From a virus (lineage: Duplodnaviria; Caudoviricetes), in IMG/VR virus record IMGVR_UViG_3300046795_000082, positions 1-64,000 of that record: a stretch of 64,000 nt of DNA. One strand, written 5' to 3'. Below the pieces are notes generated by a model that had not been told where the DNA came from, searched no databases, and was given only the letters and a program-made list of their open reading frames with translations. The translations under genes were made by a program, and so were the position numbers. Of this stretch, positions 11,002 to 57,870 are shown one piece after another (position 1 is the first letter of the stretch; every line of letters starts with the position of its first letter).

Positions 11002-11191
11002 TCGAATGCTGCAATTCTTCGAATACGCGCACCTGCCGGAGCCCCTGCAGGCGGCCAGTCGACGCTTCTACGAGCTGGCGCACGGGGTCGTGGACGACTT
11101 CCCGATGAACCCGGAACGCACGGTCTGCCTTCGCAAGCTCCTGGAGGCCAAGGACGCCGCCGTTCGCACCCTGCTCTACAAGGAGGCGTGA
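10994..11191 (+). CDS. small helical-hairpin protein, candidate nucleotide-signal sponge (Acb2/Tad1-hairpin-like)
   Basis: FFEYAHLP..LQ..S..F..LA.....P..PERTVCLRKLLEAKDAAVR is a widespread phage family; the second helix resembles the Tad1 RE.A.ALT..EEA.MW helix. Confidence 0.5.
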   Translation: MPDRMLQFFEYAHLPEPLQAASRRFYELAHGVVDDFPMNPERTVCLRKLLEAKDAAVRTLLYKEA

Positions 11192-13188: not shown

Positions 13189-13191
13189 CCC

Positions 13192-13425
13192 ATGACAACA
13201 CCCAAGCGAGACCCGATCCTCGCGGTCCTGCACTATTTCGAGACCGCCGAGCTGCCGCGGGCCGAGCAGGCATTCGAGCTGGTGCGGGAGGCGCTCCGGA
13301 AGCGCCGGCTGCCGAAGACACCGCCGGTTCGCGTCGCTGTTCCCGCGGCCACCAAGAAGGCCCCGCCGCCGAACAACAAGAAGAAGGCACCGGCCGCTAC
13401 ACCGGCCGCGCCGCTCCCGAGCTAA
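13192..13425 (+). CDS. small basic hypothetical protein
   Basis: 77-aa ORF with Lys/Pro-rich tail. Confidence 0.55.
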   Translation: MTTPKRDPILAVLHYFETAELPRAEQAFELVREALRKRRLPKTPPVRVAVPAATKKAPPPNNKKKAPAATPAAPLPS

Positions 13426-13430
13426 GGGCG

Positions 13431-13619
13431 ATGTTCGACACCAGCTGCTACAACCTCGCGCTGCACTGGCTGGAGGACGAGCCGCTGCGGACCCAGGAGG
13501 AACGGGAGGCGCGGGCCATAGGGCTCGCGCAGGCCATCCAGGACGCGATCGAGGGCTGGTTGGAAGACAACCCTCAACACCACAACCTCGATGAGGAGCT
13601 GAACCGCCTTGACTCGTAA
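13431..13619 (+). CDS. small acidic hypothetical protein
   Basis: ATG at 13431 (MFDTSCYNLALHWLEDE...). Confidence 0.55.
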   Translation: MFDTSCYNLALHWLEDEPLRTQEEREARAIGLAQAIQDAIEGWLEDNPQHHNLDEELNRLDS

Positions 13620-14769
13620 GACGCCACTCGTCCTCGTTGGTGACGGACCGCAGGAGGCGACTGGGCTGGGGCGCATCGCACGCGACCTCGGGATGCTCGT
13701 GACGTCGACGCCACTCGACATCGAGTTCCTGCAGATCGGCGGCAGCGTGCCGCCGTGCTGGACCGCCTGGCCACACGTGCCCATGGGGGTGACGGAGCGG
13801 GGTGACGACTGGGGAGTCTCGTTCGTCGAGGCCATCTATCGTGACCGCTTCGGCGACACGCCGGGTGTCCTCTGGCTCGTCTGGGACCCGGCGCGCTGCT
13901 ATGCCTACGCCGCGTGCAACCTGCCGGTCCAGCACTGGGGCTACCTGGCGGTCGACTCGCACAATCGCTACGGGGGCCTTTCTGGGCTCCCAGCAGCCGC
14001 TGTAGCGACGTTCGACCGCGTGTTGGGATATGGACGCTGGGGCGCAGAAGTCCTCCGTACGGCCCGCGAGACGCCTGTGAGCTACCTTCCCCACGGCCTG
14101 TGGCTGGAGACATTTCGGCCGCCCAGTGGAGAAGAGTGGGCCTGGGTGGCCGCGCAGCTCGGTCCACACGTCGGCCGAGCGGCCGTCATCGGCTGCGTGG
14201 CCACCAATCAGGCGCGCAAGGACCTGGCGCTCTACGCTGAGACGCTGGCGACCTTGCGCGACCGCGGACACCTGGTCTACGGCTGGCTCCACACCGACGC
14301 CGTCACGGGCGCATGGTCGATCGACCAGCTCGTCGCCGACTGCGGGCTGCGAAAGCAGCTCACCGTGACGATCGGGAATTTGACCGACCGGCAGCTGGCG
14401 TGTCTCTACCACCGCTGCACGGTGACGATCGCGCCCGGCCTGGGCGAGGGGTTCGGCTATCCGATCGTCGAGAGCCTCGCCAGCGGCGTGCCGGTCGTCC
14501 ATGGAGATTTCGGTGGCGGTAGCGAATTGGTGCCCAAACTGGAATGGCGCATTCCGATCCGAGAAGTCCGCCGCGAGAGCATCTACGCGCTGACCCGCCC
14601 GGTCTACCGCGCCGAGGACGCCGCCAACGCCGTGGAACGCGTGTGGAGGTGGCAGGCGGAGGTCGGCCCGACCGTCGCCGCCGCCTACTGTCGCGGCTGC
14701 GTCGCCCATCTCGACTGGGGCGTGCTCGCGCCCCGCTGGACCACTTGGCTCAAGGCAGGTCTGCAATGA
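13609..14769 (+). CDS. GT-B glycosyltransferase (GT4-like)
   Basis: VATNQARKD and EGFGYPIVESLASGVPVV (Ex7E donor-binding motif). Confidence 0.9.
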   Translation: MTRKTPLVLVGDGPQEATGLGRIARDLGMLVTSTPLDIEFLQIGGSVPPCWTAWPHVPMGVTERGDDWGVSFVEAIYRDRFGDTPGVLWLVWDPARCYAYAACNLPVQHWGYLAVDSHNRYGGLSGLPAAAVATFDRVLGYGRWGAEVLRTARETPVSYLPHGLWLETFRPPSGEEWAWVAAQLGPHVGRAAVIGCVATNQARKDLALYAETLATLRDRGHLVYGWLHTDAVTGAWSIDQLVADCGLRKQLTVTIGNLTDRQLACLYHRCTVTIAPGLGEGFGYPIVESLASGVPVVHGDFGGGSELVPKLEWRIPIREVRRESIYALTRPVYRAEDAANAVERVWRWQAEVGPTVAAAYCRGCVAHLDWGVLAPRWTTWLKAGLQ

Positions 14770-15014
14770 AAAGCGCCTTGGTTCACGGGCAGCTGGTCAT
14801 CGTCGAGGGCCAGGCCGGCAGTGGCGTGCCGCTCATCGTGACCACCATCGAGTGCGACATCTGCGGCAGCTACTCGATCGTTGTCGCGGCCCACCACGCC
14901 AAGTCACTCCTGAAGATCCTGCGCGACTGCATCGCCGAACTGCCCGACGAGGCGACCGCTGACGAAGGGCAGCCGCTGCCGACGCGCCGACCGCCGAACC
15001 CGGAGGACAACTGA
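14766..15014 (+). CDS. small hypothetical protein with CxxC
   Basis: CDIC; ATGA/TGATG coupling within the operon. Confidence 0.55.
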   Translation: MKSALVHGQLVIVEGQAGSGVPLIVTTIECDICGSYSIVVAAHHAKSLLKILRDCIAELPDEATADEGQPLPTRRPPNPEDN

Positions 15015-15826
15015 TGGCCATTGGCATCGTGACGGCGACCACCAACCTGGCCCGGGCGAGCCGGACGATCGACAGCTGGAGCCAGTGCTCCAGCCGCCGG
15101 ATACCAATCCAGATCGTCGTCAATGGCGGCGTCGCAGCGCGCCCCTACCTGGGCGTCGTTCCGGCCTTCCGCGAGGGCGTCGACGAGCTGCTGCGAACCG
15201 AGCCGGAGGTCGACATCATCGCCTGCTTCCACGACGACCTGACGATTCTCGACGAGGGCTGGGACACGCGTGTCCAGCAGGCGTTCGACCGCCATAAGAC
15301 GCTCGGCCTAGCCGGCTTCAGTGGCGCCATCGGGCTGGGCACCGACGACCTCTACCACGGCCCCTACGACCCGATGCAGCTGGCGCGGATTGGGTTCCGC
15401 TCCAACCTAGTCGACGCCGAGACCCACGGGGCGCGCAGCCTGGTGCCGGAGATGGTCGTCTGCTGCGATGGCTTCTCCCAGATCGGCCGGCGGGCCTTCT
15501 TCCTGGGCCAGTCGCTGCAGGAGCACTTGGAACATCAGACCAGCCGGCGGGGCTGCACCCGCCCGTGGACCGCGCTGGAGCAGCTGGGGTTCGTGCATCA
15601 CTTCTACGACGGTGCGCTGGGCTGCCTGGCGCGTCGCTTGGGCTGGCAGGTGCGCTATCTGCCAGTGCGGTGTCACCACCAGGGGGGCCAGACCGCGGTC
15701 GGCGACCCCGGCTATCAACGCTGGGCCGCGCTGGAAATTGACGGAGGCGACCGTGGATTCTGGGAAGCGGCCCATCGAATTGGCTACGACACCTTCAAAG
15801 ACGTCCTCCCCCTCCGGCTCCGATGA
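15014..15826 (+). CDS. GT-A glycosyltransferase (GT2-like)
   Basis: IIACFHDDL (DxD-equivalent), DGF and HHFYD motifs. Confidence 0.8.
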   Translation: MAIGIVTATTNLARASRTIDSWSQCSSRRIPIQIVVNGGVAARPYLGVVPAFREGVDELLRTEPEVDIIACFHDDLTILDEGWDTRVQQAFDRHKTLGLAGFSGAIGLGTDDLYHGPYDPMQLARIGFRSNLVDAETHGARSLVPEMVVCCDGFSQIGRRAFFLGQSLQEHLEHQTSRRGCTRPWTALEQLGFVHHFYDGALGCLARRLGWQVRYLPVRCHHQGGQTAVGDPGYQRWAALEIDGGDRGFWEAAHRIGYDTFKDVLPLRLR

Positions 15827-16043
15827 GCGCTGTGAGGGGATTGTGCAGCGCCTGCTGCCTGAGCGGGGCTACGGCTTCATCCGCGCGCGCGACGGGCAGT
15901 ACGTGGGGGTTGACTTCTTCTTCCACGCGTCGGGCCTGATTGGCGGCTGCGCGATGCGCGACCTGGAGCAGGGCGACCTGGTCCGCTTCGAACCGCGCCT
16001 CGCGGCGAAGGGCCACCGCGCCGAGAACATCGAGCTGTTATGA
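15823..16043 (+). CDS. cold-shock domain protein (start codon out of frame by one base)
   Basis: GIVQRL..ERGYGFI (RNP1) and DFFFHAS (RNP2), VRFE..KG.RAENI; ATG at 15823 is one base off the domain frame. Confidence 0.75.
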
Positions 16044-16855
16044 AAGTGCTCGCCACCCACCCCGGCCGCTACGGCGACCTGCTCTGGGCGCTGCCCACCG
16101 TGCGGGCCCTGGCGCAGACCTTCAGCTGCCAGGTCGACCTGCTCCTGTCACCCCGCTACAGTGACCCATACTTCTGCGCGCTGCTGAAACGGCAGATCTA
16201 CATCGGCACGGTCACCCACATGCGTGACTGGGCGATTCTCGAAACCGCGCCAATCTCACCGCGGATCCCCCCAAACCTGCCTCCGGGCTACGACCGCATC
16301 TTTCATCTCGGCTACACCGACTGGCCCGCGCACGCGCTGCCCCTGGAGACCTATCAGCTCACGTCTCGGCACGCCCTGCTGGCCCCGCTCAACCTCGCGC
16401 AGCCGTGGATCGTAGCGCAGGCACCGATGCGCCTCTGTAAGGTCGTCGTCGGCTTCTCCGATGAATATTTCGAGATGAAATACGGCCTGGCGCGGCTGCT
16501 GTGGGAGCACCTCGGTGAGGCGATGGTCAATCTCTCGGGCGGGCCGCGCTGGACGACCCCCGAGACCCGTATCGAGCGCAACTGGGAAGCGGCAGCGAAC
16601 TGGATTGCTGGCGCCGAGCTGTTCGTCGGCTGCTGTTCAGCGCTGCACGTGCTCGCGTGTGCCCTCGGCACACCGGTGATTCTCGTCGAGCCGCAGGTCG
16701 CACGCCACCACGACGCCTTCTATCCCTACGGCAAGCTCGGACCCGAGGTCCTGCTCCTGACCGGTAACGACGGCCTGCCCACCTTCGACAGCCGCCATCT
16801 CCTCGATGCGGTCGACGCCCGGATCCCCCACACGCGTGAGGAGGCGATGCCATGA
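16040..16855 (+). CDS. GT-B glycosyltransferase (GT9/heptosyltransferase-like)
   Basis: GRYGDLLWALPTVRAL and LFVGCCSALHVLACALGTPVI match the GT9 patterns GD....P..RAL and F.G.DSG..H.A.A.G.P. Confidence 0.75.
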   Translation: MKVLATHPGRYGDLLWALPTVRALAQTFSCQVDLLLSPRYSDPYFCALLKRQIYIGTVTHMRDWAILETAPISPRIPPNLPPGYDRIFHLGYTDWPAHALPLETYQLTSRHALLAPLNLAQPWIVAQAPMRLCKVVVGFSDEYFEMKYGLARLLWEHLGEAMVNLSGGPRWTTPETRIERNWEAAANWIAGAELFVGCCSALHVLACALGTPVILVEPQVARHHDAFYPYGKLGPEVLLLTGNDGLPTFDSRHLLDAVDARIPHTREEAMP

Positions 16856-17253
16856 GCCGCTTGGTGAACTTCGGTCTCGGCGAGGTGTGTGACCGCGTCA
16901 GCATCCTCGCCCTGAAGATTCTCTACGGGGAGAGCAAGAGCGTCGACGTGCAGCACTTCCGAAACGAGCGCGCCGCGCTGATGGTGAAGGTCCTCACCAG
17001 AGACGGAGGCCGCTGGATCGAGTACTACAGCGACCTGGCCGCGGTGAATGCTGCGATCTGGCAGGCCGAGGAGATGATTCGCGGCCGACGTGAAGCGATC
17101 ACCCACACCGAGGACGAAGGCGAACTCGCCGCGCACCACTACCAGGCCGGCGCGCTCGGCCTGCAGATCGCCACGCTCAACGACCGACGCGCCGCGCTCA
17201 TTCAGCAGATCAACGGCTTCGTCGGGGACGACAAGGCGGTGGAGAAGGTATGA
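16852..17253 (+). CDS. DUF6165-like all-helical protein
   Basis: GEVCDRVSILALK..., L..VN..IW..E..IR, and N..RA.L...IN pattern. Confidence 0.6.
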   Translation: MSRLVNFGLGEVCDRVSILALKILYGESKSVDVQHFRNERAALMVKVLTRDGGRWIEYYSDLAAVNAAIWQAEEMIRGRREAITHTEDEGELAAHHYQAGALGLQIATLNDRRAALIQQINGFVGDDKAVEKV

Positions 17254-18200
17254 AGGTCCTGCTGGTGACCACCTGGGGCGAGCCCTGCGGCATCGCCGAG
17301 CACAGCGCGATGCTCAAGGAGGCGGTCGAAGCTGCCGACCCCGACATCCAGGTCTTCCCCAACAGCGACCTCCTCGACCCGGCGCTGCTCGACGACGGGC
17401 GCGGCATCGACATCCTGCACCTGAACTATCAGGCCGCCCTCCACTCGCGGTGGACCTCAGCCCAGATCGCTTTCCTCCGCACGACCGGGATGAAGGTCGT
17501 CGTCACGTATCACGACTCCGGCGTCCCGAACTCCGATCACTGCAAAGCGATCATCGACGCGGCGGATGCCGCCGTCGTCCACGAGCCGTTCGACGACCTA
17601 CCGGCCGAGAAGACGCACTACTGGCGCATGGGAGTGCCCGAGGCGCCACAGCGCTACCGCCTGTTTCGCGCCAGCCCCGGCCACCGTCCCGTGCTGGGCA
17701 CGATCGGCTTCCCGTTTGGGTGGAAGAACTACAGCGCGCTGATTCGCGGGGCCGATGCGGCCGGCTGGAACGTGCTGCTGCTGGCGCCGACGGCCAGCAA
17801 GGAGCAGATCGCTGAGTGGCTGGACTGCAGTGACCACATCTTCGTCCGCGCGCAGTTCCTGCCCCGGGAGGAGGCCGTGCAGTGGCTCGCGGGCTGCGAC
17901 GCCACCGCCTTCACGTACGTCACGCACAACACCGGCCAGAGCGGCGCGATCCTGTTGGGCATCGCGGCCAGAAAGCCGGTGTTTGCGCTCAGAACCTGCA
18001 GGCAGTTCCGCGCCCTCTACGCCGACCCGATCGGCCGGCTGGCGATTCGCTGGATCGACAATTTCGACGACCTGGCGAAGGAGCTGCGCGCGCTGCCGCT
18101 CACCGGGAAGCCGGACAAGCCGACCGTCGCGCTCGCCGAGCAGGAGAGCTGGGCGCACCTGGGCAAGAAATACGCGGCGCTCTACCGGAGCCTCGTATGA
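17250..18200 (+). CDS. GT-B glycosyltransferase (GT4-like)
   Basis: MKVLLVTTWGEPCGIAEHS N-terminus, LHLNYQ, VTYHD and SGAILLGIAARKPV motifs. Confidence 0.75.
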   Translation: MKVLLVTTWGEPCGIAEHSAMLKEAVEAADPDIQVFPNSDLLDPALLDDGRGIDILHLNYQAALHSRWTSAQIAFLRTTGMKVVVTYHDSGVPNSDHCKAIIDAADAAVVHEPFDDLPAEKTHYWRMGVPEAPQRYRLFRASPGHRPVLGTIGFPFGWKNYSALIRGADAAGWNVLLLAPTASKEQIAEWLDCSDHIFVRAQFLPREEAVQWLAGCDATAFTYVTHNTGQSGAILLGIAARKPVFALRTCRQFRALYADPIGRLAIRWIDNFDDLAKELRALPLTGKPDKPTVALAEQESWAHLGKKYAALYRSLV

Positions 18201-18397
18201 AGGTCAGCGAGTGCATCGCGCGGCTGGAGAACGTGCTCAGGAAGCACGGCGACGTCCAGTGTGAATCCGACTGCCCATACTGCAACCGCTCGTTTGTCGT
18301 CGGCGTCGTCGCCACCGCCCCCGAGACCGTGCGCCTGAATCACCGGGAGAGCGATGGCCCCGTCGGCACGCGCGCCGTGAAAGAACAAAGAGGGTGA
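18197..18397 (+). CDS. small hypothetical protein
   Basis: ATGA overlap; CPYC. Confidence 0.5.
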   Translation: MKVSECIARLENVLRKHGDVQCESDCPYCNRSFVVGVVATAPETVRLNHRESDGPVGTRAVKEQRG

Positions 18398-18398
18398 C

Positions 18399-18959
18399 AT
18401 GGGCGTCCTCAGCGTCTTCGCTCCGGCGGCAGTGTTCATCGAAACGGGCCTCGGCAGCGGACAGTCGCTACGCGCGGCGCTCAGCGAGCCCTTTGAGACG
18501 CTGCACTCGATCGAAATTGATGCGTCGCTGATCGCGCGCTGCGACCTGGTTGATCCGCGTCTGACGATCCACCACGGCAGCAGTCCCAACATCCTGCCGA
18601 CGATCATCGACCCGGAGCGGTCAACGATGTTCTGGCTCGATGCCCATTACTCGGCCGGGCTCTACACCTCGGACTCGGACGTCGACCGGACCCGGCTCGA
18701 CCCGCGCTACGGCCAGTGTCCGCTGCTCGCCGAGCTAGCGATCATCCGCGCGGCGCCGTGGCGCGTCCGCCCGTGGATCTACATCGACGACGCCGAGTGC
18801 TTCGTGACGCCGATCTATGAGGGGATGCTCGCGCAGTATGACCGGGCGCAGTATCCAACCGAAGCCGAGGTCCGTGCGGCCCTCCCTGAGCGGTATCACG
18901 TCGAGACCCTCGACATGCGTGGATGGGCCTTCCGAGCGACACCCGAGGAGCAGCGATGA
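18399..18959 (+). CDS. class I SAM-dependent methyltransferase
   Basis: FIETGLGSG (motif I), LHSIEID (motif II), GSS, FWLDAH. Confidence 0.8.
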   Translation: MGVLSVFAPAAVFIETGLGSGQSLRAALSEPFETLHSIEIDASLIARCDLVDPRLTIHHGSSPNILPTIIDPERSTMFWLDAHYSAGLYTSDSDVDRTRLDPRYGQCPLLAELAIIRAAPWRVRPWIYIDDAECFVTPIYEGMLAQYDRAQYPTEAEVRAALPERYHVETLDMRGWAFRATPEEQR

Positions 18960-19594
18960 GCGAGCTGCTGCTGTCGCGCACGCTCGACCCGGCCGACTAT
19001 GACCGTTTCACCGAGGAGCTGAAAGTCGTCGACGGCTACAGCCTCGACGGCCAGCATCCGCACCGCCGCTGGGAGTATGGCCTGGCGCTGCACGCCATCT
19101 GGCGCTGGCGGCAGCGGCCCGGGACCCGCTTGGACCGGGAGGACCCCATCTACGACGTCGGCGGGGCCGGCACGCCCTTCCATCACATGCTCACCGAGTG
19201 GACGCTCGGGGACGTCGACGTGATCGACCCGACGCTCAATCGCACCGTCGAGCGCTACGCGGTCGCTGGGGCGGCGCTCGCGGACGTGGTCACGTGTATC
19301 TCGGTGATCGAGCACGTCAAGGACGTCGACCGCTTTCTCTACGCCCTGAGCTGCCTCGTCGCGCCGGGCGGCCTCGTGATCATCACGATGGACTACTGGA
19401 ACCGCTGCGGCGCCGACACCGCCGAGAATCGCGACTCACGGCAGCGCATCTACTGTCCGAAGACTTACGCGCAGCTGCGAAACGCGTGTACGCCGCTGCA
19501 CCTCACCACGTTCGGGGGCGTCGATCCGAGCTGGCATGGCGCGCAGGTCTGGGACTACACGTTCGCCAGCCTGGTACTGGAAAAGCGGGCATGA
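18956..19594 (+). CDS. class I SAM-dependent methyltransferase (Methyltransf_11-like)
   Basis: RRWEY, IYDVGGAG, VVTCISVIEHV, LVAPGG. Confidence 0.8.
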   Translation: MSELLLSRTLDPADYDRFTEELKVVDGYSLDGQHPHRRWEYGLALHAIWRWRQRPGTRLDREDPIYDVGGAGTPFHHMLTEWTLGDVDVIDPTLNRTVERYAVAGAALADVVTCISVIEHVKDVDRFLYALSCLVAPGGLVIITMDYWNRCGADTAENRDSRQRIYCPKTYAQLRNACTPLHLTTFGGVDPSWHGAQVWDYTFASLVLEKRA

Positions 19595-20136
19595 CGGCGC
19601 TCTCCCGCACCTGTCGGCTCCGCGACTTTCCCGACTGCATCACCGTCGCGGCCTGGCAGCAGCACCTCGCCAACATCGCCTGGGCGCGCTGGATCGAGGA
19701 GCGGCACACACAGACGCGGACCCCGAACTACGTCGTCAACTGGAGCGGATGCCCCTTCGACGCGCCGGGGCCGACCGCCATTTACCAGCTGCGGGGAGAG
19801 CCGGTCCCGAAGACTCCCGAGAACGTGCCCGCGGTCTTCGCCCTCTCGGTGCTCGACCATCTGGACGCGCCGCTGCGCTTCTTCGTCGACGCGCTCGCGC
19901 AGGTGCGCCGCGGGGGCCTGCTGTTCTGCACCTACGCGTTCTGGGACGCCGAAGGGCCGGACCTCGCCGCCGGCAACGACGGGCGTCGGCGGATCTACGA
20001 CGCGACCAGCCAGCGCAAGCTCCTGGCTGAACTCCGCAAGATGGACCTGCTGCCCTTCGGCGGCCTCGACTGGAGCTATCACGGTCACACGCTCGACGAC
20101 CACACCCTCGCCAGCCTGGTGCTGACGCGGCGCTGA
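19591..20136 (+). CDS. divergent methyltransferase-like paralog
   Basis: VFALSVLDHL, VRRGGLL, RRIYD and DWSYHG..ASLVL parallel the upstream MTase; motif I is degenerate (VVNWSG). Confidence 0.6.
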   Translation: MTALSRTCRLRDFPDCITVAAWQQHLANIAWARWIEERHTQTRTPNYVVNWSGCPFDAPGPTAIYQLRGEPVPKTPENVPAVFALSVLDHLDAPLRFFVDALAQVRRGGLLFCTYAFWDAEGPDLAAGNDGRRRIYDATSQRKLLAELRKMDLLPFGGLDWSYHGHTLDDHTLASLVLTRR

Positions 20137-20148
20137 AGGGAGGACGAG

Positions 20149-21405
20149 ATGAAGGTCACCACCAGCATGTGCCGGGCCTGCCGAAGCGGCCTGGAGCCGC
20201 TCGTCGACCTCGGCGACATCTGCCTGTCCGGGTTTCCTGCCCGCGACGAGGCGGACCGGCCCCGAGCGCCTCTGCTCCTCTGCGCGTGTGGCGCCTGCCG
20301 ACTCGTCCAGCTGGGGCATACCGTCTCTCGGGATGACCTGTTCTGTCACTACTGGTATCAGAGCGGCATCAACGAAACGATGCGCGACGAGCTGGCGAGC
20401 GTCGTCGAGGACGCGGTCATGCGTGTGGGTGAGATGACCCCCAACGACGTCGTCCTGGACATCGGGGCGAACGACGGAACGCTCCTGACCCACTACCGGA
20501 CGCTCGGACTCAACCCCCTCCACGACGGCCCGATCCGTGTCGCCTACGAGCCCGCCCGAAACCTCCAAGAGGCCTTGCGGCTGGCCGCCGACGTCATCGT
20601 CGCGGACTACTTCCCGGAGCGCTACAAGGAGATTCAGCGCCTGGAGGGACGGGTGAAGATCATCACGTCGATCGCCATGGTCTACGCGGTCAACGCGCTG
20701 GCGCCGTTCCTCGCCGCCATCGCCGCGCTGCTGCACCGGGACGGCGTGTGGATCGTGCAGTTCCAGGACCTGGCGCAGATGCTCCAGACGCGCGCCTTCG
20801 ACAACATCTGCCACGAGCACCTCTGCTACTTCAGCCTGGAGAGCTTCGGGAAGCTCCTCGTGCCCTACGGGCTCCAGGTCGTCGATGCCGGGCGCCGCGC
20901 CATCAACGGCGGCAGCCTGCGCCTGACCGTGCAGCACAGTGGACACCAGGTCGACCGACACGTCATGGAGCGGCTGGCCGAGGAATCTGGCTGCCAGCAG
21001 TGGACCGCGCTGGAGGCGTTCGACGCGCGGGTGCAGGAGACGATTCGCCACATTCGCGGCGCCGTCACGCCCTGGATCGGTCGGGGGCGCACGGTCGACC
21101 TCTACGGGGCGTCGACCAAGGCCAATACGCTCCTCCAGGTCTGCCACGTCGACCACCGTGTCCTGCGCCAGGCCTGGGAACGAAGCCCCGAGAAGGTCGG
21201 CCGGCGCACCGTGGGGACCGACATCCCGATCGTCAGCGAGGAGGACGGACGCGCCGACCCGCCGGACGCCTTGCTCGTCGGGATCTGGCAGTTCCGCGAA
21301 GCCATCCTTGTGCGTGAGAGCGCCTTCCTGCGGAGCGGCGGGACGCTCATTTTCCCGCTGCCCAACGTCGACCTGGTGCGAATCGCGTGGAACGCCACGG
21401 CCTGA
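20149..21405 (+). CDS. NDP-hexose C-methyltransferase
   Basis: N-terminal zinc site CRAC..C..C, LVQL, YWYQSG, VLDIGANDGTLL, FDNICHEHLCYFS, INGGSL, YGASTKANTLLQ: the full TcaB9/TylC3/NovU-type architecture. Confidence 0.9.
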   Translation: MKVTTSMCRACRSGLEPLVDLGDICLSGFPARDEADRPRAPLLLCACGACRLVQLGHTVSRDDLFCHYWYQSGINETMRDELASVVEDAVMRVGEMTPNDVVLDIGANDGTLLTHYRTLGLNPLHDGPIRVAYEPARNLQEALRLAADVIVADYFPERYKEIQRLEGRVKIITSIAMVYAVNALAPFLAAIAALLHRDGVWIVQFQDLAQMLQTRAFDNICHEHLCYFSLESFGKLLVPYGLQVVDAGRRAINGGSLRLTVQHSGHQVDRHVMERLAEESGCQQWTALEAFDARVQETIRHIRGAVTPWIGRGRTVDLYGASTKANTLLQVCHVDHRVLRQAWERSPEKVGRRTVGTDIPIVSEEDGRADPPDALLVGIWQFREAILVRESAFLRSGGTLIFPLPNVDLVRIAWNATA

Positions 21406-21414
21406 AGGAGACCC

Positions 21415-21522
21415 ATGCATCTACTCGAAATCGGTGGCCGGCTGGAGACGGTGCTGCTCCTCGTCACCCTCGCCGTGCTGGTCGTCTTCTGGTGGCACTT
21501 CCGCAGCGGAGCGCGACGATGA
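21415..21522 (+). CDS. 35-aa single-pass membrane protein
   Basis: Hand-translated MHLLEIGGRLETVLLLVTLAVLVVFWWHFRSGARR*; RBS GGAG; ATGA overlap with the next gene. Confidence 0.5.
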   Translation: MHLLEIGGRLETVLLLVTLAVLVVFWWHFRSGARR

Positions 21523-21980
21523 AGGAAATCACAGGAGACCTCTGGGCGCAGGTCTGCGACGCGCGCTGCATCACTACCAACGGCACGGTCACCAACGCCG
21601 GGCGCGGGGTGATGGGCCGAGGCGTCGCGCGCCAGGCCAAGGACCGCTACCCAGGTATCGAGCTGCACCTCGGGCGGATGGTCCGCCGCTTCGGCAATCA
21701 CACGCAGCTGCTGGTCGACGAGCCGGATGGCGTACCCCTCATCGCCCTGCCGGTCAAACACAACTGGCCCGACAAAGCCGACCTGCTGCTCATCAAGCGC
21801 AGCATGACAGAACTGGTCACACTCACCGACACGCGTGGCTGGCAGGTGGTCGTGCTACCGCGGCCAGGCTGCGGCAACGGCAAGCTGCACTGGGACCAGG
21901 TCGAGCGCCTGATCACGCCGCTGCTCGACGACCGGTTCCTCGTCGTCTACGCCGGCACTGGGGAGCGATGGGAAGCATAG
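21519..21980 (+). CDS. macrodomain protein, TARG1/DarG-like ADP-ribosylhydrolase
   Basis: GDL, TTN, MGRGVA..AK.RYP, LPVKHNW (DarG FPTK.HW-like catalytic Lys) and LPRPGCGNGKL.W. Confidence 0.8.
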   Translation: MKEITGDLWAQVCDARCITTNGTVTNAGRGVMGRGVARQAKDRYPGIELHLGRMVRRFGNHTQLLVDEPDGVPLIALPVKHNWPDKADLLLIKRSMTELVTLTDTRGWQVVVLPRPGCGNGKLHWDQVERLITPLLDDRFLVVYAGTGERWEA

Positions 21981-22027
21981 TGAGAAAGAGTTGCAACATG
22001 ATGCCTGATGAGAGTAGAGTGACTTCC

Positions 22028-22252
22028 ATGCCCACACAACCACGAAAGCCCGCCAGCAAACCGACGGAGAGACAAGGGCTGGTCTCCCTCGCCGAAGCCG
22101 CCGCGTACCTCGGACTCTCCGAGGGGACGCTGCGGAATTGGGTGTCGATGCGGAGGATCGAGTACGTGAAGATCGGCAGCCGCACCTGCTTCCGGCCCGC
22201 CGCGCTCGACGCCTATATCGCGGCGCAGACGGTGCCGGCGGTCAATCGCTGA
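22028..22252 (+). CDS. xis: excisionase / HTH_17 DNA-binding protein
   Basis: LVSLAEAAAYLGLSEGTLRNWV..I..VKIG....F...LDAYI; directly upstream of the integrase. Confidence 0.8.
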   Translation: MPTQPRKPASKPTERQGLVSLAEAAAYLGLSEGTLRNWVSMRRIEYVKIGSRTCFRPAALDAYIAAQTVPAVNR

Positions 22253-22270
22253 GAGACGAGAGAGGGACCG

Positions 22271-23374
22271 ATGCGACTCTACAAACGGTGTGACTGTCCG
22301 GAGACCGGCTGCTCGCACTCCCTGTGGTACGGCTTCAAGCACAAGGGGAAGCCCTACCGGGGGTCGACGTTCACGGCCAACCGAAAGCTCGCGCTGCGGA
22401 TTGCCACCCGCGCGCGCAACAAGGTCGTCGGCGAGCGCGCCGGCCTGGAGATGGACGACGAGGCGGCGCCGCTGCAGCCGCTGCTCTCCGAGGCGCGGGT
22501 GCAGTACATCAACTGGGCGAAGGGCGACCACCCCGCCACCGCCGAGTCGGAGGACCTGCGCGTGCTGACCGTGTTCCAGGACATCCTCGACGACAAACGA
22601 CTCGACGCGTACACGCCGTTCGACATCGAGCGCTGGCGCACCGCCCGCCTCAAGAGCGGCGTCGTCCGCAACACCGTCATCCGCAACACGATCGTCCTGC
22701 AGGGGTTTTTCTCCAAGGCCCGCATCTGGCACAAGCTGAAGGCCTCGCCGTTCGACAAGGTCGACGGGTGGAAGCCGGATGAGACCAAGCGCTTGACGCT
22801 CGACGACCGCCAGCTGCACATCGCCTTCACCGAGCTGCCGGCGCCCTACTGCTTCGTCTGCCGCGTGACGCTCGAATCGCTCGCGCGGCTGTCCGAGGTG
22901 CTCGGGCTGCAGCGGACCGACCTGGGCCCGAGCTGGATTCAGATCAAGCGCAAGGGCGGGCGGGTCGACCTGGTCACCGTCTCCGCGGACCTGCTCGCCG
23001 ACCTGCGCGCCTGGTGCCCGCTCGACCGCAAGTACGTCTTCGCAAACGAGCCGGGCGACCGCCTGCCGATGGACGCGGATACGGCGTCGGCCAACATGAC
23101 GCGGGAGTTTCGGCGTATCGGGCTGGAGGGCTTCAGCCATCACTGCTTCCGCCACACCGGCGTGACGCTGATGCTGGAGAACGGCGTGAACCCGCGGGCG
23201 ATCCAGCAGCTGGCCGGCTGGTCGTCCCTGCGTCAGCTGGCGCGCTATGGCCACGCACGGGATGCGGAGTCGCGGCGCGCGGTGGAAGGCAATGCGGCGT
23301 ACTACCGGAAGGTGATGGCGCAGAAACCGGTGGAGCCGAACACCCAGGCCACCAGTGAACCGGGGTCACAGTAG
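22271..23374 (+). CDS. int: tyrosine integrase
   Basis: Catalytic R (ARLSE), K (KRKG), HxxR (HCFRH), W (AGW) and Y (ARYGH). Confidence 0.9.
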   Translation: MRLYKRCDCPETGCSHSLWYGFKHKGKPYRGSTFTANRKLALRIATRARNKVVGERAGLEMDDEAAPLQPLLSEARVQYINWAKGDHPATAESEDLRVLTVFQDILDDKRLDAYTPFDIERWRTARLKSGVVRNTVIRNTIVLQGFFSKARIWHKLKASPFDKVDGWKPDETKRLTLDDRQLHIAFTELPAPYCFVCRVTLESLARLSEVLGLQRTDLGPSWIQIKRKGGRVDLVTVSADLLADLRAWCPLDRKYVFANEPGDRLPMDADTASANMTREFRRIGLEGFSHHCFRHTGVTLMLENGVNPRAIQQLAGWSSLRQLARYGHARDAESRRAVEGNAAYYRKVMAQKPVEPNTQATSEPGSQ

Positions 23375-23613
23375 GGAGCACAGCGGTTGTTCGACCTGTC
23401 GTAAGTAGTGGTCCTTCCAGCACTTCGTCTTCCTACTGACACCCGGCATCAGTGCCAGCCGGGGCTGGTGAGGGGGTGAGGCGGGCTGAACCCGCACACG
23501 ACGAGATGCGGGTAACCGAAAGGGCGACTATGACTTAGCGGGCGGTCCGGCTGCACGACACCTCACGCCGGATCGTCCGCTCGGGGCAGGAGGGGATCAC
23601 AAAGGGGATCACA
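23361..23613. mobile_element. putative attP region
   Basis: Non-coding gap after int with direct repeat AGGGGATCACA x2 (23591-23601, 23603-23613) and related GGGGTCACA (23362-23370), as expected for arm-type sites. Confidence 0.5.
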
Positions 23614-23636
23614 CGAACGACCGCGGGGAGGACTGA

Positions 23637-24680
23637 ATGTCTGAACCGTGGGTCATCATGCCGGTGCTGGCGGCACCGGTCGAGACTGAAGCCGCCATCA
23701 GCGACGTCCTCGCGCAGACCATGGGCTGCCGGCTCCTGGTCGTCAACCAAGGCATCGACACCCCCTTCCGCCAGCACCTCGAACGGATCGCCGAGGCCTA
23801 TCCCTCACGCGTGTTCGTGTGGTCGCACGTGCCGCCGCTGGCGAGCCTGGCGGCGACCTGGAACCGCGCCCTCGACTTCGCCTGGGAGACCGGCGCGCAC
23901 GCGGCCCTGGTCATCGGCAACGACGTCCGCCTGGCGCCGAACACGTTGCGCGAACTGGACGGCGTCATGGGCCACTGCGACCCGTACGTGGTCACGGGTG
24001 TGGGTGTGAGCCCCGAGCAGTTCACGCCTGGCGAGCCGGTGCCGCCCGTCCTGCTGACCCCACCGGACAAGCAGGGCTGGGGGCAACCCCTGGAGCGCGG
24101 CGGGCCAGACTTCAGCTGCTTCTACATCTCGCGCCAGGGGCACCACCTGTTCCGGTTCGACGAGGGCTTCATCCCGGCCTATTGCGAGGACTGTTCGCTC
24201 CACCGAGAGATGATGCTCGCCGGTGAGGGGCATCGAATCTACAGCGTCAACGTCCCCTTCGGCCACATCGGCAGCATCACCCTGAAGACCGTCGACGCGA
24301 AGACCCGCAGCCACATCGAGCGGCTGACCCAGACGACCTCGCGCGCGCACTACCTGGCGAAGTGGGGCGGGGCGGTGAACGAGGAGCGCTACACGGTCCC
24401 CTTCGACCCGACGACCGCACGAGACGGTGTGACCACTCCTGACCTATTTGCGGAGGTGCAGCGTGGGCAAGACGATCGACCAGCTCAAACTCAACGACCA
24501 GCCGCTCAGCCCCGACGACGTACGCGACGCCGCGTGGTACCAGTTCGCCATCGAGATCGACGACCTGCTGGCGACGGGCAAGTACGGGTGGGCGGAGAAG
24601 ACCCTGGGGGACATCCAGCAGACGGTCACCGAGACCCACCAGGTGACACAAGGCCAGCGACAGGCGGTGGCGAACATTGA
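23637..24680 (+). CDS. GT-A glycosyltransferase (GT2-like)
   Basis: VIMPV, SLAATWN, VIGNDV, DFSCF, FDEGF.PAYCED; the last about 70 codons overlap the next gene and look non-native. Confidence 0.8.
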   Translation: MSEPWVIMPVLAAPVETEAAISDVLAQTMGCRLLVVNQGIDTPFRQHLERIAEAYPSRVFVWSHVPPLASLAATWNRALDFAWETGAHAALVIGNDVRLAPNTLRELDGVMGHCDPYVVTGVGVSPEQFTPGEPVPPVLLTPPDKQGWGQPLERGGPDFSCFYISRQGHHLFRFDEGFIPAYCEDCSLHREMMLAGEGHRIYSVNVPFGHIGSITLKTVDAKTRSHIERLTQTTSRAHYLAKWGGAVNEERYTVPFDPTTARDGVTTPDLFAEVQRGQDDRPAQTQRPAAQPRRRTRRRVVPVRHRDRRPAGDGQVRVGGEDPGGHPADGHRDPPGDTRPATGGGEH

Positions 24681-24738
24681 AGCCGGCATTTACCGCAGCC
24701 GTGGGAGGCGCTATGAAGGCTTCGGTCGACGACGCTGA
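24463..24738 (+). CDS. hypothetical protein
   Basis: GTG start after GGAGG; typical codon usage. Confidence 0.6.
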   Translation: MGKTIDQLKLNDQPLSPDDVRDAAWYQFAIEIDDLLATGKYGWAEKTLGDIQQTVTETHQVTQGQRQAVANIEAGIYRSRGRRYEGFGRRR

Positions 24739-24916: not shown

Positions 24917-25191
24917 TGGACCATCGCATTGAAGCGGATTTCCAGACCTTGTTGATGCAGGCGGCGGACACCACCCAGCTGTATCTCAGTCGGGCAATCC
25001 ACGACATCGACGAGGCGCTCAGCCCGGGCTATGCCGCGAAGCACCCGGAGTTGGTCGCCGCCTTTATCACGACCGCAGCTCGGGACTTCCACAGCTCGAT
25101 GGTGGGGGTGGCGCTGCAGCAGCTCACCGACGCCGTGCAGGACATCGCTAACCACTTCGAACGCAGCGTGGAGATAAGTGCCCAGACTTAG
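24916..25191 (+). CDS. hypothetical phage protein
   Basis: 91 aa with the GYAAKHPELVAAF motif seen in small phage proteins. Confidence 0.65.
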   Translation: MDHRIEADFQTLLMQAADTTQLYLSRAIHDIDEALSPGYAAKHPELVAAFITTAARDFHSSMVGVALQQLTDAVQDIANHFERSVEISAQT

Positions 25192-28174
25192 TCACCCGCC
25201 GGGCTGTCGCGGCTGCGTCCTCGACGACAAGGGCGAGGGCTTCGCGCCGGCTGACGGCCCACCTGAGAGCTGGCTGCTGCTGGTCGGTGAGGCGCTCGGG
25301 AAGGTCGAGGCGCTGACCGGCCGCCCCTTCGTCGGCGACGCGGGCGGGATGCTGACGCGACTGCTGAACCTCCTGGGGTGGAAGCGGGAGGCGATCCGCA
25401 TCCACAACGCCATCAGCTGCCACCCGCCGCACGATTGGATGGATGAGCGTGCGCCCTGGTATTACCGCGCCCTGGGCCACTGCCCCTACCTGGAACAGAC
25501 CCTCTACGAAGGCCACCAGGTCGTCGTGCCGATGGGCCAGACGGCGCTACGGCGCGTCATGCACCTGGAGCACCGCAAGAAGGTCCGCGTCCAGGACTTC
25601 CATGGGGCGCTCCTGCGTGACCCAGGAGACCGCTTCTCTGTCGTCCCCACCTTCCACCCCTCCTTCTTGCAGAGAGGGGCTCACAACCTCATTGGGACGG
25701 TTTTATGGGACCTTCTGAGAGCCGAGTCGGTCCGCGATCACGGGGTGCCGCCAGACGACCACAGCCTGGTCGTCGACCCGCCGATCGAGTGGTTCCGCGC
25801 CTGGGTCGACCAGGTCATCGCGGCACGCCAGCAGGACCCCGCCGCGTATCCCATCAGTAGTGACGTCGAGACGCCCGACAAGGCGGGCGGCAAGGACGAA
25901 GGCGAGATGACCGCTGACGACCGCTCGATGCAGCTCCTGCGGCACAACGTCAGCTGCCATCCGGACGAAGGCGTGACCGTGCCGCACGACGGACCCTACA
26001 TCGCCGAGCTGGCACGGCTCTATGCGTCGCCCGGCGCGATCTGGATGTGGAACAGAGAGTATGACTTCGTCCGCCAGGTCACCGCCGGCCTGCTCCGGGA
26101 AGACGACAGCACGCGTGTCGTGGACCTGATGTGGCTGTGGCACGTGCTCCAGAGCGACCTGCCGCGAGGCCTGGGATTCGTCGCGCCGTTCTATTCGAAC
26201 TACGGGCCGTGGAAGCACCTGGCCGACGAAGACCCGGAGGGCTACGGCGCCATCGATGGCCTGCAGACTCACCGCGTCGGCTTCGGCATCATCCGGGACC
26301 TGGTCGCGCAGGGAATCTACAAAGTCGCGATGCGCCACACCCACGAGCTGCTGACCAAGGTCCTGCGGCCGGCGCAGCTGGTCGGGGTGAAGGTCGACCG
26401 GCAGCGGCTGCTCGTCTTCAAGGCCGAGCTGATCGACAAGGCGCGCGAGCGCATCGACACCCTGCAGACACGCGTGCCGGCGAATCTGCTCCCGCTCACA
26501 CCGAAGGAGGGCTACAAGCACCAGCCGGCAGCCACCCTCCTCCACGTTAAGGCCACGGCGTTCACCCGGAAGGGGACGCCGCGGGCCGGCAAACCCTCGT
26601 CGGAAATCAAGCAGGAGCTGTATGCGCGTGCCCAGATCGTCGAGAAGCTCGTCCTCAAGGAAGTCCTCACCTGTCGGACGTGCGGCGCTACCGACCTTGA
26701 TCGACGCCACCGCTGCGCTTCTGCTCAGAACCCTCACGCTCTACCGCCAGCTCTTGACCTGGCAGTCGCGTCCGTTCGGCGCTGGTACTGGCAGGAGCCG
26801 CTCAACCCCGACTCGCCCAAGCAGATCCTCGCCTACATCAAGTTCCGCAAGCACCGCGCCGGCCGGCCGAAGAAGGGCGCGGCGAGCGAGTCGACCGACC
26901 GGGAAACGCTCGACCGGCTCGTAGCCCAGACCGGCGACCCGTTCTACGCGACGCTCCTGGACTACCGCGCCATCGCCAAGGTCAAGGGCACGTATGTGGA
27001 GGCGACCGAGCGGCTGCTCGACGCCGACGACCGGATCCACCCGGTGCCGACCTTCAAGCCCTCGACCGGTCGGCTCAGCTACATGAATCCGAACATCACC
27101 AACGTCGTGGCCGACAAGGACGAGAAGCGCAACCTGGCCGCGGGGTTCCGGCGCTGCATCGTCGCCTCGCCCGGCTGCCGACTGCTGGAGGTCGACTTCG
27201 CCGGCATCGAGGCGGTCGAGACCGGGTGGTGCGCCAGGGACGCCGAGTACTACCGGCTCGCCGGCCTGGGCGTCCACGGCGCCTTGGTGACCCACGTGCT
27301 CGGGCAGCCCTACGACCCAGCCGACAGTGACGACGCACTGGGCGCGCTCTTCAAGCGGATGAAGGTCGAGCACCCAGACCTCTACGACCCGGCCAAGCGC
27401 TACATCCACGGGCGGGCCTATGGCCTGACGGTCGCCGGCATGGTGCTCCAGTTCCCGCACCTCTTCCCGCGCGTCGCGACCGCCGAGAAGTACGCCCGCA
27501 TCTACGAACAGATGGCGCCGCTGGTGGCCGGCTGGCAGCGGACGACGCAGGAGCGGGCGAGCCGGCAGCACTTCCTCGGCGGCCAGGACCACCCGTTTGG
27601 CTACCGGCACTGGTTCTGGTCGGTCTACACCTACAAGCGGCTGACGCCGGTCCAGCACGCGCGCTTGTTAGCCAAGTATGAGAAGGCTGGCCAGGCGGCG
27701 CCGGTGGTCGACATCAACGGCCAGTGGTTCAAGGTCGGCCTGGGCGAGGACGGCAAGCGCGTGCTGGCGTTCTACCCGCAGTCGATCGCGGCGGCGATTC
27801 TGAAAGAAGCGCTGCTGCGCCTGTTCGCCGACCCGGACTCGCCGAGCTACATCGGGACGGCCTACTACGGCAAGACGCCGCTCCGGGCGCCCATCCACGA
27901 CTCGATGCTGCTGGAGGTGCCCACACGCGTGTGGGACCGGGTCTACGAGACGGTCTGCATGGAGATGCAGCGGCCCATCCCGCAGCAGGCGCTGCCGGCC
28001 GAGTGGCAGCGCCCAGGCGAGTACGTCCGCATCGGCATCGCCGCGAAAGCCGGCCAGGACTGGGCGACGATGGAGGACCTGGTCGTGCCGCACTACGCCG
28101 AGAGCTGGATCGCCAGCCCCATCGACGAGGCCGATGAAGACGACTGGAACGACCTCGCCCGCGTCATCGCCTGA
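25178..28174 (+). CDS. polA: family A DNA polymerase with N-terminal family-4 UDG-like domain and 3'-5' exonuclease
   Basis: UDG: CRGC, VGEALG, PFVG.AG, SCHPP, TFHPS. Exonuclease: SDVET, WN..YD, Y...D. Polymerase: VDFAGIE (A), KRYIHGRAYG (B), IHDS (C). Confidence 0.92.
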   Translation: MPRLSHPPGCRGCVLDDKGEGFAPADGPPESWLLLVGEALGKVEALTGRPFVGDAGGMLTRLLNLLGWKREAIRIHNAISCHPPHDWMDERAPWYYRALGHCPYLEQTLYEGHQVVVPMGQTALRRVMHLEHRKKVRVQDFHGALLRDPGDRFSVVPTFHPSFLQRGAHNLIGTVLWDLLRAESVRDHGVPPDDHSLVVDPPIEWFRAWVDQVIAARQQDPAAYPISSDVETPDKAGGKDEGEMTADDRSMQLLRHNVSCHPDEGVTVPHDGPYIAELARLYASPGAIWMWNREYDFVRQVTAGLLREDDSTRVVDLMWLWHVLQSDLPRGLGFVAPFYSNYGPWKHLADEDPEGYGAIDGLQTHRVGFGIIRDLVAQGIYKVAMRHTHELLTKVLRPAQLVGVKVDRQRLLVFKAELIDKARERIDTLQTRVPANLLPLTPKEGYKHQPAATLLHVKATAFTRKGTPRAGKPSSEIKQELYARAQIVEKLVLKEVLTCRTCGATDLDRRHRCASAQNPHALPPALDLAVASVRRWYWQEPLNPDSPKQILAYIKFRKHRAGRPKKGAASESTDRETLDRLVAQTGDPFYATLLDYRAIAKVKGTYVEATERLLDADDRIHPVPTFKPSTGRLSYMNPNITNVVADKDEKRNLAAGFRRCIVASPGCRLLEVDFAGIEAVETGWCARDAEYYRLAGLGVHGALVTHVLGQPYDPADSDDALGALFKRMKVEHPDLYDPAKRYIHGRAYGLTVAGMVLQFPHLFPRVATAEKYARIYEQMAPLVAGWQRTTQERASRQHFLGGQDHPFGYRHWFWSVYTYKRLTPVQHARLLAKYEKAGQAAPVVDINGQWFKVGLGEDGKRVLAFYPQSIAAAILKEALLRLFADPDSPSYIGTAYYGKTPLRAPIHDSMLLEVPTRVWDRVYETVCMEMQRPIPQQALPAEWQRPGEYVRIGIAAKAGQDWATMEDLVVPHYAESWIASPIDEADEDDWNDLARVIA

Positions 28175-56893: not shown

Positions 56894-56896
56894 GAC

Positions 56897-57868: not shown

Positions 57869-57870
57869 GG

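Follow-up and report, generated by a model that had tools for sequence, protein, structure and literature searches.

The first 64,000 nucleotides of IMG/VR record IMGVR_UViG_3300046795_000082, hereafter the window, belong to the 72,266-bp genome of an uncultivated soil phage, which CheckV rates as complete. Between positions 13609 and 24680, the window has seven genes that are jointly present or jointly absent in related phages. They encode five glycosyltransferases (GTs), a DUF6165-like protein, and an enzyme of the nucleoside diphosphate (NDP)-hexose C-methyltransferase family, and are referred to as the cassette. Our best reading is that the cassette builds a short methyl-branched oligosaccharide on an acceptor other than DNA. 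As this acceptor we tentatively propose a lipid-linked envelope glycan of the host, which is of the lipopolysaccharide (LPS)-core or ABC-transporter O-polysaccharide type. The envelope is only slightly preferred over virion protein, which is nearly as likely. The original prediction, a phage pathway for a complex methylated glycan, had listed the five GTs, four methyltransferase-type genes (one of them degenerate), the DUF6165-like gene, and a cold-shock domain gene, and all are found at the positions it gave. Three further genes of this run went unlisted there, namely a macro-domain-like open reading frame (ORF), an HTH_17 ORF, and a tyrosine integrase. The translational coupling that it had noticed is also present, with neighboring genes from 13609 to 20149 joined by 4-bp ATGA overlaps or separated by gaps of at most 16 nt.

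The strongest evidence for one functional unit is that the seven genes show an all-or-none presence despite being interleaved with other genes. We compared 11 genomes from a clade of ~70-kb phages, namely the window phage and ten relatives, which were located via the C-methyltransferase and via the family A DNA polymerase (PolA) and fetched in full. The seven genes are jointly present in five of the 11 genomes and jointly absent from six complete genomes, and they occupy four separate slots among the backbone genes. All cassette proteins are intact, sharing 34-65% identity across the four other cassette-bearing phages, and their metagenomic homologues number in the hundreds. The closest PolA relatives (69-75% identity) lack all of the GTs, the DUF6165-like gene, and the C-methyltransferase. 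They keep the backbone, which includes the genes at 11188 and 12532, the cold-shock domain gene, a PIF1/RecD-like helicase, a pair of Methyltransf_23 genes, the ORF at 24448, and PolA. In a tree of four concatenated core proteins, the cassette-bearing and cassette-less genomes are interspersed with support of 0.85-1.0, and there must therefore have been at least three gain or loss events. Recombination that swaps the whole segment from the 12532 gene to PolA could give the all-or-none pattern more cheaply. The stretch from the GT4-like gene to the C-methyltransferase is a variable tailoring slot that differs among the phages. It holds two FkbM methyltransferases in genome G003, where an FkbM methyltransferase weakly matches RfbT of V. 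cholerae, a methyltransferase gene at 18399 in the window phage, and an NAD-dependent epimerase/dehydratase in genome G004 and in a contig from a metagenome-assembled genome (MAG). The possibility that the genes are decaying or unexpressed was rejected in view of their conserved catalytic motifs, confident structural models, and hundreds of homologues with 50-80% identity.

The five GTs, like all genes of the run, are on the + strand. The first one (13609..14769, 386 residues, with a possible alternative start at ATG 13693) is a GT4-family enzyme with the GT-B fold. It matches Pfam Glyco_trans_1_4 (3e-10, 40.9 bits) and Glycos_transf_1 (8e-10, 39.0 bits) above the respective cut-offs of 27 and 26.4 bits, and phrog_2170 at 1.6e-20. 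Its C-terminal domain has the EX7E-type motif GEGFGYPIVES, which is invariant across three sequences. The second GT (15014..15826, 270 residues) probably has a GT-A fold and is Glyco_tranf_2_5-like judging by its homologues. The protein itself has no Pfam match. It has 500 homologues at E<=1e-3, and the 120 listed are 53-82% identical to it; PF13712 (Glyco_tranf_2_5) is precomputed on 12 of these 120, which are 54-62% identical to it. The fifth GT (23637..24680) is probably a GT2 enzyme, with a GT-A catalytic domain spanning residues 1 to ~272. It matches phrog_29879 ('galactosyl transferase') at 5e-10 and has 809 library matches. The protein gives no Pfam match by itself, and PF00535 (Glycos_transf_2) is found on 32 of 45 sampled homologues with a best value of 2.6e-21. 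The NND and ED motifs are kept, and Asp96, Asp185, and His210 are invariant. The last ~75 residues are an Arg/Pro-rich read-through over 24448-24738, and this tail is not kept in relatives.

The third and fourth GTs were assigned mainly from their AlphaFold2 models. The third GT (16040..16855, 271 residues) has a model with a predicted local distance difference test (pLDDT) score of 93.8, for which the top Foldseek matches are WaaC, TibC, and WaaF at ~1e-7. The VIA Z-scores of the model are 17-18 to WaaC, WaaF, and a GT9 enzyme of Veillonella parvula, 15 to TibC, and 11 to the next family. The protein has no Pfam match, and so none to Glyco_transf_9 (PF01075), and its match to NCBIfam TibC is weak (3.6e-4, 19.6 bits against a cut-off of 200). 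Judged by the two-domain GT-B fold of the model, it is a GT9-like, i.e., heptosyltransferase-like, enzyme, and ADP-heptose is only a candidate donor. The following gene (16852..17253) encodes a helical protein of 133 residues that is DUF4254/DUF6165-like. It has an Atlas feature score of 0.93 and a TM-score of 0.85 to a DUF4254 cluster, and a TM-score of 0.77 to a cluster from bacteria, whose members have DUF6165 in 65% and Glyco_transf_9 in 25% of cases. This protein is probably a partner of the GT9-like enzyme. The complex prediction for the two proteins scored 0.00 and gave no verdict. A search of phage records with the DUF6165-like protein returned zero matches. The fourth GT (17250..18200, 316 residues) is GT4-like with a GT-B fold, and its model (pLDDT 93.7) matches GlgM at 5e-12, followed by SenB, HepE, PimA, and MshA down to 1e-9. 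It has no canonical EX7E motif, the position reading NTGQSGAILQG, and its Pfam Glyco_transf_4 match of 16.7 bits is under the cut-off of 28.5. The protein has 428 homologues, and its profile is absent from six complete relatives. A BFVD fold search with its model found generic viral GT1/GT4 matches, which do not discriminate among acceptors. PDB profile searches with five-sequence alignments of the second, third, and fourth GTs gave nothing useful, and hhalign comparison of the GT4-like and GT9-like families with a three-sequence GT4 alignment gave no signal (probability <1%).

The seventh cassette gene (20149..21405) encodes the C-methyltransferase family enzyme of 418 residues. All three of its Pfam domains are above cut-off, namely Methyltransf_14 (PF08484; 2e-32, 112.6 bits), Methyltransf_23 (PF13489; 7e-12, 45.8 bits), and Methyltransf_13 (PF08421; 4e-9, 37.1 bits). 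It aligns end to end with 4rv9, TcaB9, and the sugar 3-C-methyltransferase 5t6b at E-values of 1e-44 to 1e-33. In the alignment to the D-mycarose 3-C-methyltransferase 4rv9 (residues 6-410, 3.5e-44), the CxxC...CxxC and FDxIxHEHLxY motifs are kept. The enzyme thus resembles the NDP-hexose 3-C-methyltransferases TcaB9, D-mycarose enzyme, and KijD1 in its three domains, zinc cysteines, and HEH motif. Those enzymes belong to antibiotic deoxysugar clusters that include a 4,6-dehydratase and a ketoreductase, whereas the phage encodes neither. Among phage records, the C-methyltransferase matches five, which are from uncultured phages of 635-735 kb and one Synechococcus phage.

Three further methyltransferase-type genes precede the C-methyltransferase. 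The protein encoded at 18399..18959 (186 residues) is class I S-adenosylmethionine (SAM) methyltransferase-like by Atlas structural matches, which comprise clusters of class I and of FkbM methyltransferases as well as a GT2-fused domain (TM-scores of 0.75-0.81). Its motif I reads ETGLGSG. It has no homologue in the ten relatives, being unique among the 11 genomes compared, and it is a candidate sugar O-methyltransferase. The next gene (18956..19594, 212 residues) encodes a class I methyltransferase (Methyltransf_23/11/12) with Pfam matches at 1e-7 and the motif DVGGAG, and has homologues of up to 54% identity in cassette-less genomes. The last one (19591..20136, 181 residues) is a paralogue of this gene, as the two cross-match in tblastn, and has a degenerate SAM motif with NWSGCP replacing GxGxG. 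Homologues of the paralogue with 47-57% identity are found in six of six cassette-less genomes. Both members of the Methyltransf_23 pair are hence backbone genes, and so is the cold-shock domain gene (15843..16043; Pfam CSD 2.5e-10), which has 42-58% identical homologues in six of six cassette-less genomes; all three are outside the cassette unit. The earlier proposal that four methyltransferases act in one pathway is not borne out, as only the C-methyltransferase co-varies with the GTs and the 18399 gene is unique to this phage.

No Epimerase/dehydratase of the short-chain dehydrogenase/reductase (SDR) type and no NTP_transferase were found in the whole 72,266-bp record. Because the phage has neither an SDR epimerase/dehydratase nor a nucleotidyltransferase, the sugar nucleotides should come from the host. 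In two relatives (G004 and L083), an SDR gene is directly upstream of the C-methyltransferase. We then surveyed the two genes flanking relatives of the C-methyltransferase at 73 other viral loci. Of the 145 genes scanned, 45 are of the SDR or GDP-mannose-4,6-dehydratase type and 24 are FkbM methyltransferases, and no base-modifying family is among the 25 commonest flanking families. The prevalence of sugar-nucleotide enzymes beside the C-methyltransferase in other viruses supports its action on a nucleotide sugar. The cassette proteins all have an acidic isoelectric point (pI) and are soluble, none being a membrane protein. A Kyte-Doolittle scan of the whole record found no protein with at least three hydrophobic segments, which agrees with the earlier remark that a GtrA flippase and a multi-transmembrane GT-C are missing. 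The idea of a multi-enzyme glycan-building unit stands, with genes that are intact, conserved, cytoplasmic by composition, and in need of host sugar nucleotides.

In the mechanism we propose, the cassette enzymes would draw on NDP-sugars of the host. The C-methyltransferase would methylate a host-made NDP-4-keto-6-deoxyhexose intermediate, and a host reductase would complete the branched sugar. Each of the five transferases would add one residue to give an oligosaccharide of up to about five sugars, which may be O-methylated by the phage-specific 18399 methyltransferase. The cytoplasm or the membrane's inner face would be the site of assembly. The same enzymes could also serve a soluble role with no macromolecular acceptor, by making a free glycoside or oligosaccharide or by diverting host sugar nucleotides for envelope starvation or for a signalling or decoy molecule. 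Enzymes of the C-methyltransferase family are mostly known for acting in the deoxysugar pathways of small molecules (antibiotics), the structural neighbors of the GT4-like enzyme include the small-molecule GTs MshA, BshA, SenB, and GlgM, and no acceptor candidate was found. We nonetheless regard such a role as unlikely, given that five polysaccharide-type transferases (GT2, GT4, and GT9) exceed the needs of diversion or of a simple glycoside, and that an aglycone-forming enzyme is absent from the genome.

We also weighed DNA as the acceptor. The oligosaccharide would then be attached to a modified phage base and block restriction or other nucleic-acid-targeting defences. Besides the location among replication genes, the cassette is in relatives beside DNA methyltransferases of the Dam and D12 types. 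A phage Dam gene (PF05869) is between the C-methyltransferase and the GT2 gene at L002:11447-12082, L003:11206-11904, and L006:11424-12056, with no counterpart in the window phage, and a D12-class adenine methyltransferase is found in one relative (L002:13235-14299). The patchy distribution of the cassette is typical of counter-defence genes. Moreover, phage GT-A and GT-B enzymes akin to those of LPS and teichoic acid attach as many as three sugars, heptose among them, to 5-hydroxymethylcytosine (5hmC) (10.1101/2023.12.21.572611). The clusters of such enzymes, among which are the T-even alpha- and beta-glucosyltransferases, resemble the cassette in these GT types and in being near replication genes, and build mono- to trisaccharides including heptose (10.1101/2023.12.21.572611). 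The phage DNA glycosylation known so far needs 5hmC or 5-hydroxymethyluracil, which is made by a thymidylate-synthase-like enzyme or by a C5-methyltransferase plus a TET-like dioxygenase (10.1101/2023.12.21.572611).

Six-frame searches with working controls found neither PF00303 (Thymidylat_synt) nor PF00145 (C5 DNA_methylase) in the whole record, and PF00303 is also absent, by six-frame search, from three complete cassette-bearing relatives. The original prediction had likewise reported no thymidylate-synthase-like gene. Its statement on TET/JBP holds insofar as PF12851 (Tet_JBP) gave no match in the record or in the three complete relatives, but the positive control of this search was silent. 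The cassette therefore differs from the DNA-glycan clusters in that their precursor enzymes, i.e., the thymidylate-synthase-like enzyme or the C5-methyltransferase with TET/5mYOX, were not found, and in having more GTs and a sugar C-methyltransferase. The original prediction had also drawn an argument for DNA from the adjacent polymerase, a fusion of a uracil-DNA glycosylase (UDG) domain with PolA (25178..28174; Pfam UDG 2.8e-18, DNA_pol_A 8.7e-25), which flanks the cassette from outside. Full-length homologues of UDG-PolA with 69-76% identity are found in relatives with and without the cassette, including six complete cassette-less genomes at 69-75% identity. This argument and the one from gene position are not supported, because cassette-less phages have UDG-PolA and its replication neighbors just as well, and in the same place among the replication genes. 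Five GTs and an NDP-sugar C-methyltransferase would give a glycan bigger than any known on DNA, the viral neighbors of the C-methyltransferase are sugar-nucleotide enzymes with no base-modifying family among the 25 commonest, and the cassette proteins are all acidic. DNA glycosylation is unlikely, since no known route to a hydroxymethylated base was found in searches of which only the TET/JBP part had a silent control, and since UDG-PolA is common to cassette-less relatives. Slightly more improbable still is a multi-sugar C-methyl-branched glycan that is placed on phage DNA by a route without the known enzymes forming 5-hydroxymethyl-pyrimidines.

A virion acceptor is a possible alternative, nearly as likely as the envelope. 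In this case, proteins of the capsid, tail, or fibres would be decorated by the cassette enzymes within the cytoplasm, either ahead of virion assembly or in the course of it. The cassette proteins are soluble and acidic with no membrane protein among them, TibC, one of the matches of the GT9-like model (Z ~15), is an O-heptosyltransferase of proteins, and lytic members of the clade carry the cassette. Virus-encoded synthesis of a methylated oligosaccharide in the cytoplasm, independent of host glycosylation pathways and destined for the capsid, is known from chlorovirus PBCV-1, e.g., A064R with two GT domains and a methyltransferase domain. PBCV-1 differs in being a giant virus of eukaryotes and in having N-linked glycans, and its likeness to the cassette is by description only. 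In mycobacteriophages, according to PMC11600133 (citing Freeman et al. 2023), the proteins of the capsid and the tail tube are modified by three GTs encoded in tandem downstream of an O-methyltransferase. According to the same paper, the operons of cluster F Che8 and of cluster O Corndog-like phages combine cytoplasmic GTs with a methyltransferase, are outside the structural block, and use host sugar nucleotides, as the cassette would. Glycosylation of conserved virion proteins has the best experimental precedent (PMC11600133). The cassette differs from these operons in having five GTs of other families, the GT9-like/DUF6165 pair, and a C-methyltransferase, and the host is unlikely to be a mycobacterium.

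We then inspected the virion genes of the 11 genomes, and found no structural gene whose presence follows that of the cassette. The major capsid protein (47935-48987) shares 83-87% identity with those of cassette-less phages and has the same C-terminus; a decoration-like protein is encoded at 47371-47925. Among the other conserved virion proteins, no extension of the C-terminus, Ser/Thr tract, or change in length goes with the cassette, in which they differ from the mycobacteriophage case. The cassette is in the early arm, apart from the structural genes. The Thr/Ser-rich fibres at 55514-58656, which had been suggested as the most plausible acceptor, are not supported in this role. They are phage-specific: of the four other cassette-bearing phages, three carry no homologue, and only the third fibre gene (57871-58656) matches genome G311 (31%), and it equally matches three cassette-less phages. 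Fibres that are equally rich in Ser/Thr occur in phages without the cassette.

The envelope, our tentative choice, is favored by the types of enzymes in the cassette. Enzymes of the GT9, GT4, and GT2 families assemble the LPS core and ABC-transporter O-polysaccharides on the cytoplasmic side and have no need of a dedicated flippase. The lack of any multi-transmembrane protein in the genome fits such envelope-glycan families, which work without a flippase of their own. It also sets the cassette apart from GtrABC seroconversion, which relies on the GtrA flippase, the bactoprenol GT GtrB, and a multi-transmembrane GT-C. The cassette shares GT families and folds with the enzymes of LPS core and ABC-transporter O-polysaccharide synthesis (WaaC/WaaF of GT9, WaaG-type GT4, and GT2). 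As in those systems, soluble or peripheral enzymes would work one after another on the cytoplasmic side, and methylation would be a tailoring step, similar to methyl-capping by RfbT and WbdD. Unlike the LPS systems, the cassette is phage-encoded, its proteins are 10-17% identical to the cellular enzymes, genes for lipid A, Kdo, export, or ligation are missing, and the lipid acceptor is putative. A surface-exposed product would be compatible with the location in the early arm, with the patchy distribution as accessory genes, and with the tailoring slot, which varies as expected of a diversifying surface glycan. The weak RfbT match of an FkbM methyltransferase in G003 also favors the envelope. 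Host machinery would export the lipid-linked glycan and thereby alter the surface of the infected or lysogenic cell.

Several points weigh against the envelope. None of the present results identifies an acceptor, and membership of the C-methyltransferase in its sequence family does not prove sugar C-methylation. Neither the phage nor its close relatives have a priming transferase, flippase, ABC transporter, or ligase, which would leave export entirely to the host. A homologue of the integrase is missing from most cassette-bearing relatives, and surface conversion by a purely lytic phage needs another rationale. The sole host lead is the aforementioned MAG contig, which is 48.6 kb long, binned in a Gemmatimonadales MAG, bears the same cassette, and resembles phage DNA. 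When the 321 bp that follow the integrase were used to look for attB in 301 genomes of the phylum of this MAG (Gemmatimonadota), the matches did not exceed chance level. According to PMC11600133 (citing Freeman 2023), virion glycosylation is the sole role for which comparable operons of GTs and methyltransferases in phages of bacteria have experimental proof.

The other genes in the run are not part of the cassette. The 82-residue ORF at 14766..15014 overlaps the GT4 stop by 4 bp and has no family match; it has weak homologues in genomes with and without the cassette, and is thus not cassette-specific. The Cys-rich ORF at 18197..18397 (66 residues) only matches phrog_38414 at 2.5e-4, and has a single homologue (47%), which is in a cassette-less genome. 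The macro-domain-like ORF at 21519..21980 has its own coding frame according to the plot of GC content at third codon positions (GC3), and is not a glycan gene. Its Pfam Macro match is weak (2e-3, below cut-off), its homologues in G002 and G003 are 49-58% identical, and its N-terminus resembles macro domains of the TARG1/DarG type. This ORF could act in counter-defence against ADP-ribosylating systems. It is followed by an excisionase-like ORF with a helix-turn-helix domain (21998..22252; start uncertain, 21968 to 22028; Pfam HTH_17 2e-10, phrog_66 7e-10) and by the tyrosine integrase (22271..23374; Pfam Phage_integrase 1.7e-15, phrog_1 2e-37), of which no homologue was matched in the five relatives searched. 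Together with a 262-bp non-coding stretch, which is a candidate attP, these two genes fill 21998-23636, which in relatives is the place of the Dam-type methyltransferase. At the equivalent place before PolA, the sister genome G310 encodes a tyrosine recombinase of an unrelated kind (L116:17214-18644). Among the unique genes of cassette-less phages in that slot, two have no PDB match and one, in G310, is a tyrosine recombinase. The GT2 tail is overlapped in another frame by a small conserved ORF (24448..24738), which was recognized from the GC3 frame plot and belongs to the backbone. The coding frame switches near 24400, and the same overlap of GT2 tail and small gene occurs in L002. Homologues of the small ORF are 44-52% identical in L006 and L002, and are also found in cassette-less genomes. 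A PIF1/RecD-like SF1 helicase is located between the cold-shock domain gene and the GT9-like gene in nine of the 11 genomes (e.g., at L002:908-2434, L006:1924-3759, and L007:2700-4625); the window phage and G002 do not have it there.

Upstream of the run, the genes at 11188-12510 and 12532-13188 have no Pfam, PHROG, or PDB match, and the label of the latter as SSB (single-stranded DNA-binding protein)-like in the original prediction was not confirmed. The 160-residue ORF at 13137-13619, with an N-terminus rich in Arg and Ala and a low GC3 of 0.68, is probably over-called, and an ORF starting at ATG 13431 or the one at 13192-13425 may be the real gene. A promoter and terminator scan over 12-26 kb gave signals at the level expected by chance. 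The GC content is ~68% and even along the whole record. Genes up to ~30 kb are on the + strand and form the early/replication arm, and those from 30.3 kb on are on the - strand and structural, including the terminase, a lytic transglycosylase tail protein, and fibres. The 804-residue virion protein at 32310-34724 (- strand) has an N-terminal lytic transglycosylase domain (phrog_669 and phrog_2013), and may be the chief means by which the phage degrades peptidoglycan. Outside the window, a DUF2201 metallopeptidase and VWA-like protein is encoded at L082:3684-5033 (genome 67184-68533), two genes downstream of an AAA-type ATPase (L082:1498-2691). A small ORF that looks SpoVG-like by eye (L082:5556-5840; genome 69056-69340) is shared only with the cassette-bearing G002 and G004. 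No tRNA genes were found in the phage, and a nucleotide search against phage records gave zero matches. The best PolA protein match among phage records has 43% query coverage and 25% identity, hence there is no cultured close relative.

To our knowledge, phage glycosylation is proven for few acceptors, which are the DNA of T-even and related phages, mycobacteriophage virions, and the O-antigen in its conversion. The present phage spends ~8 kb of its 72-kb genome on five transferases and a branched-sugar methyltransferase. A system of this complexity had been called undescribed. Phage operons of GTs and methyltransferases for virion glycosylation (PMC11600133) and GT clusters for DNA glycans (10.1101/2023.12.21.572611) have in fact been published; what is distinctive here is the size of the cassette, the GT9/DUF6165 pair, the branched-sugar methyltransferase, and the clean all-or-none distribution. 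The all-or-none pattern in otherwise near-identical phages provides a natural with/without comparison for finding the acceptor, and the seven genes are a minimal set for heterologous reconstitution. Through the pairing with a GT9-like enzyme, the uncharacterised DUF4254/DUF6165 family acquires a first functional context. Were the host envelope the acceptor, the cassette would represent an unusually elaborate surface conversion. A virion acceptor would extend virion glycosylation beyond actinophages, and a DNA acceptor would mean a new chemistry of DNA hypermodification.

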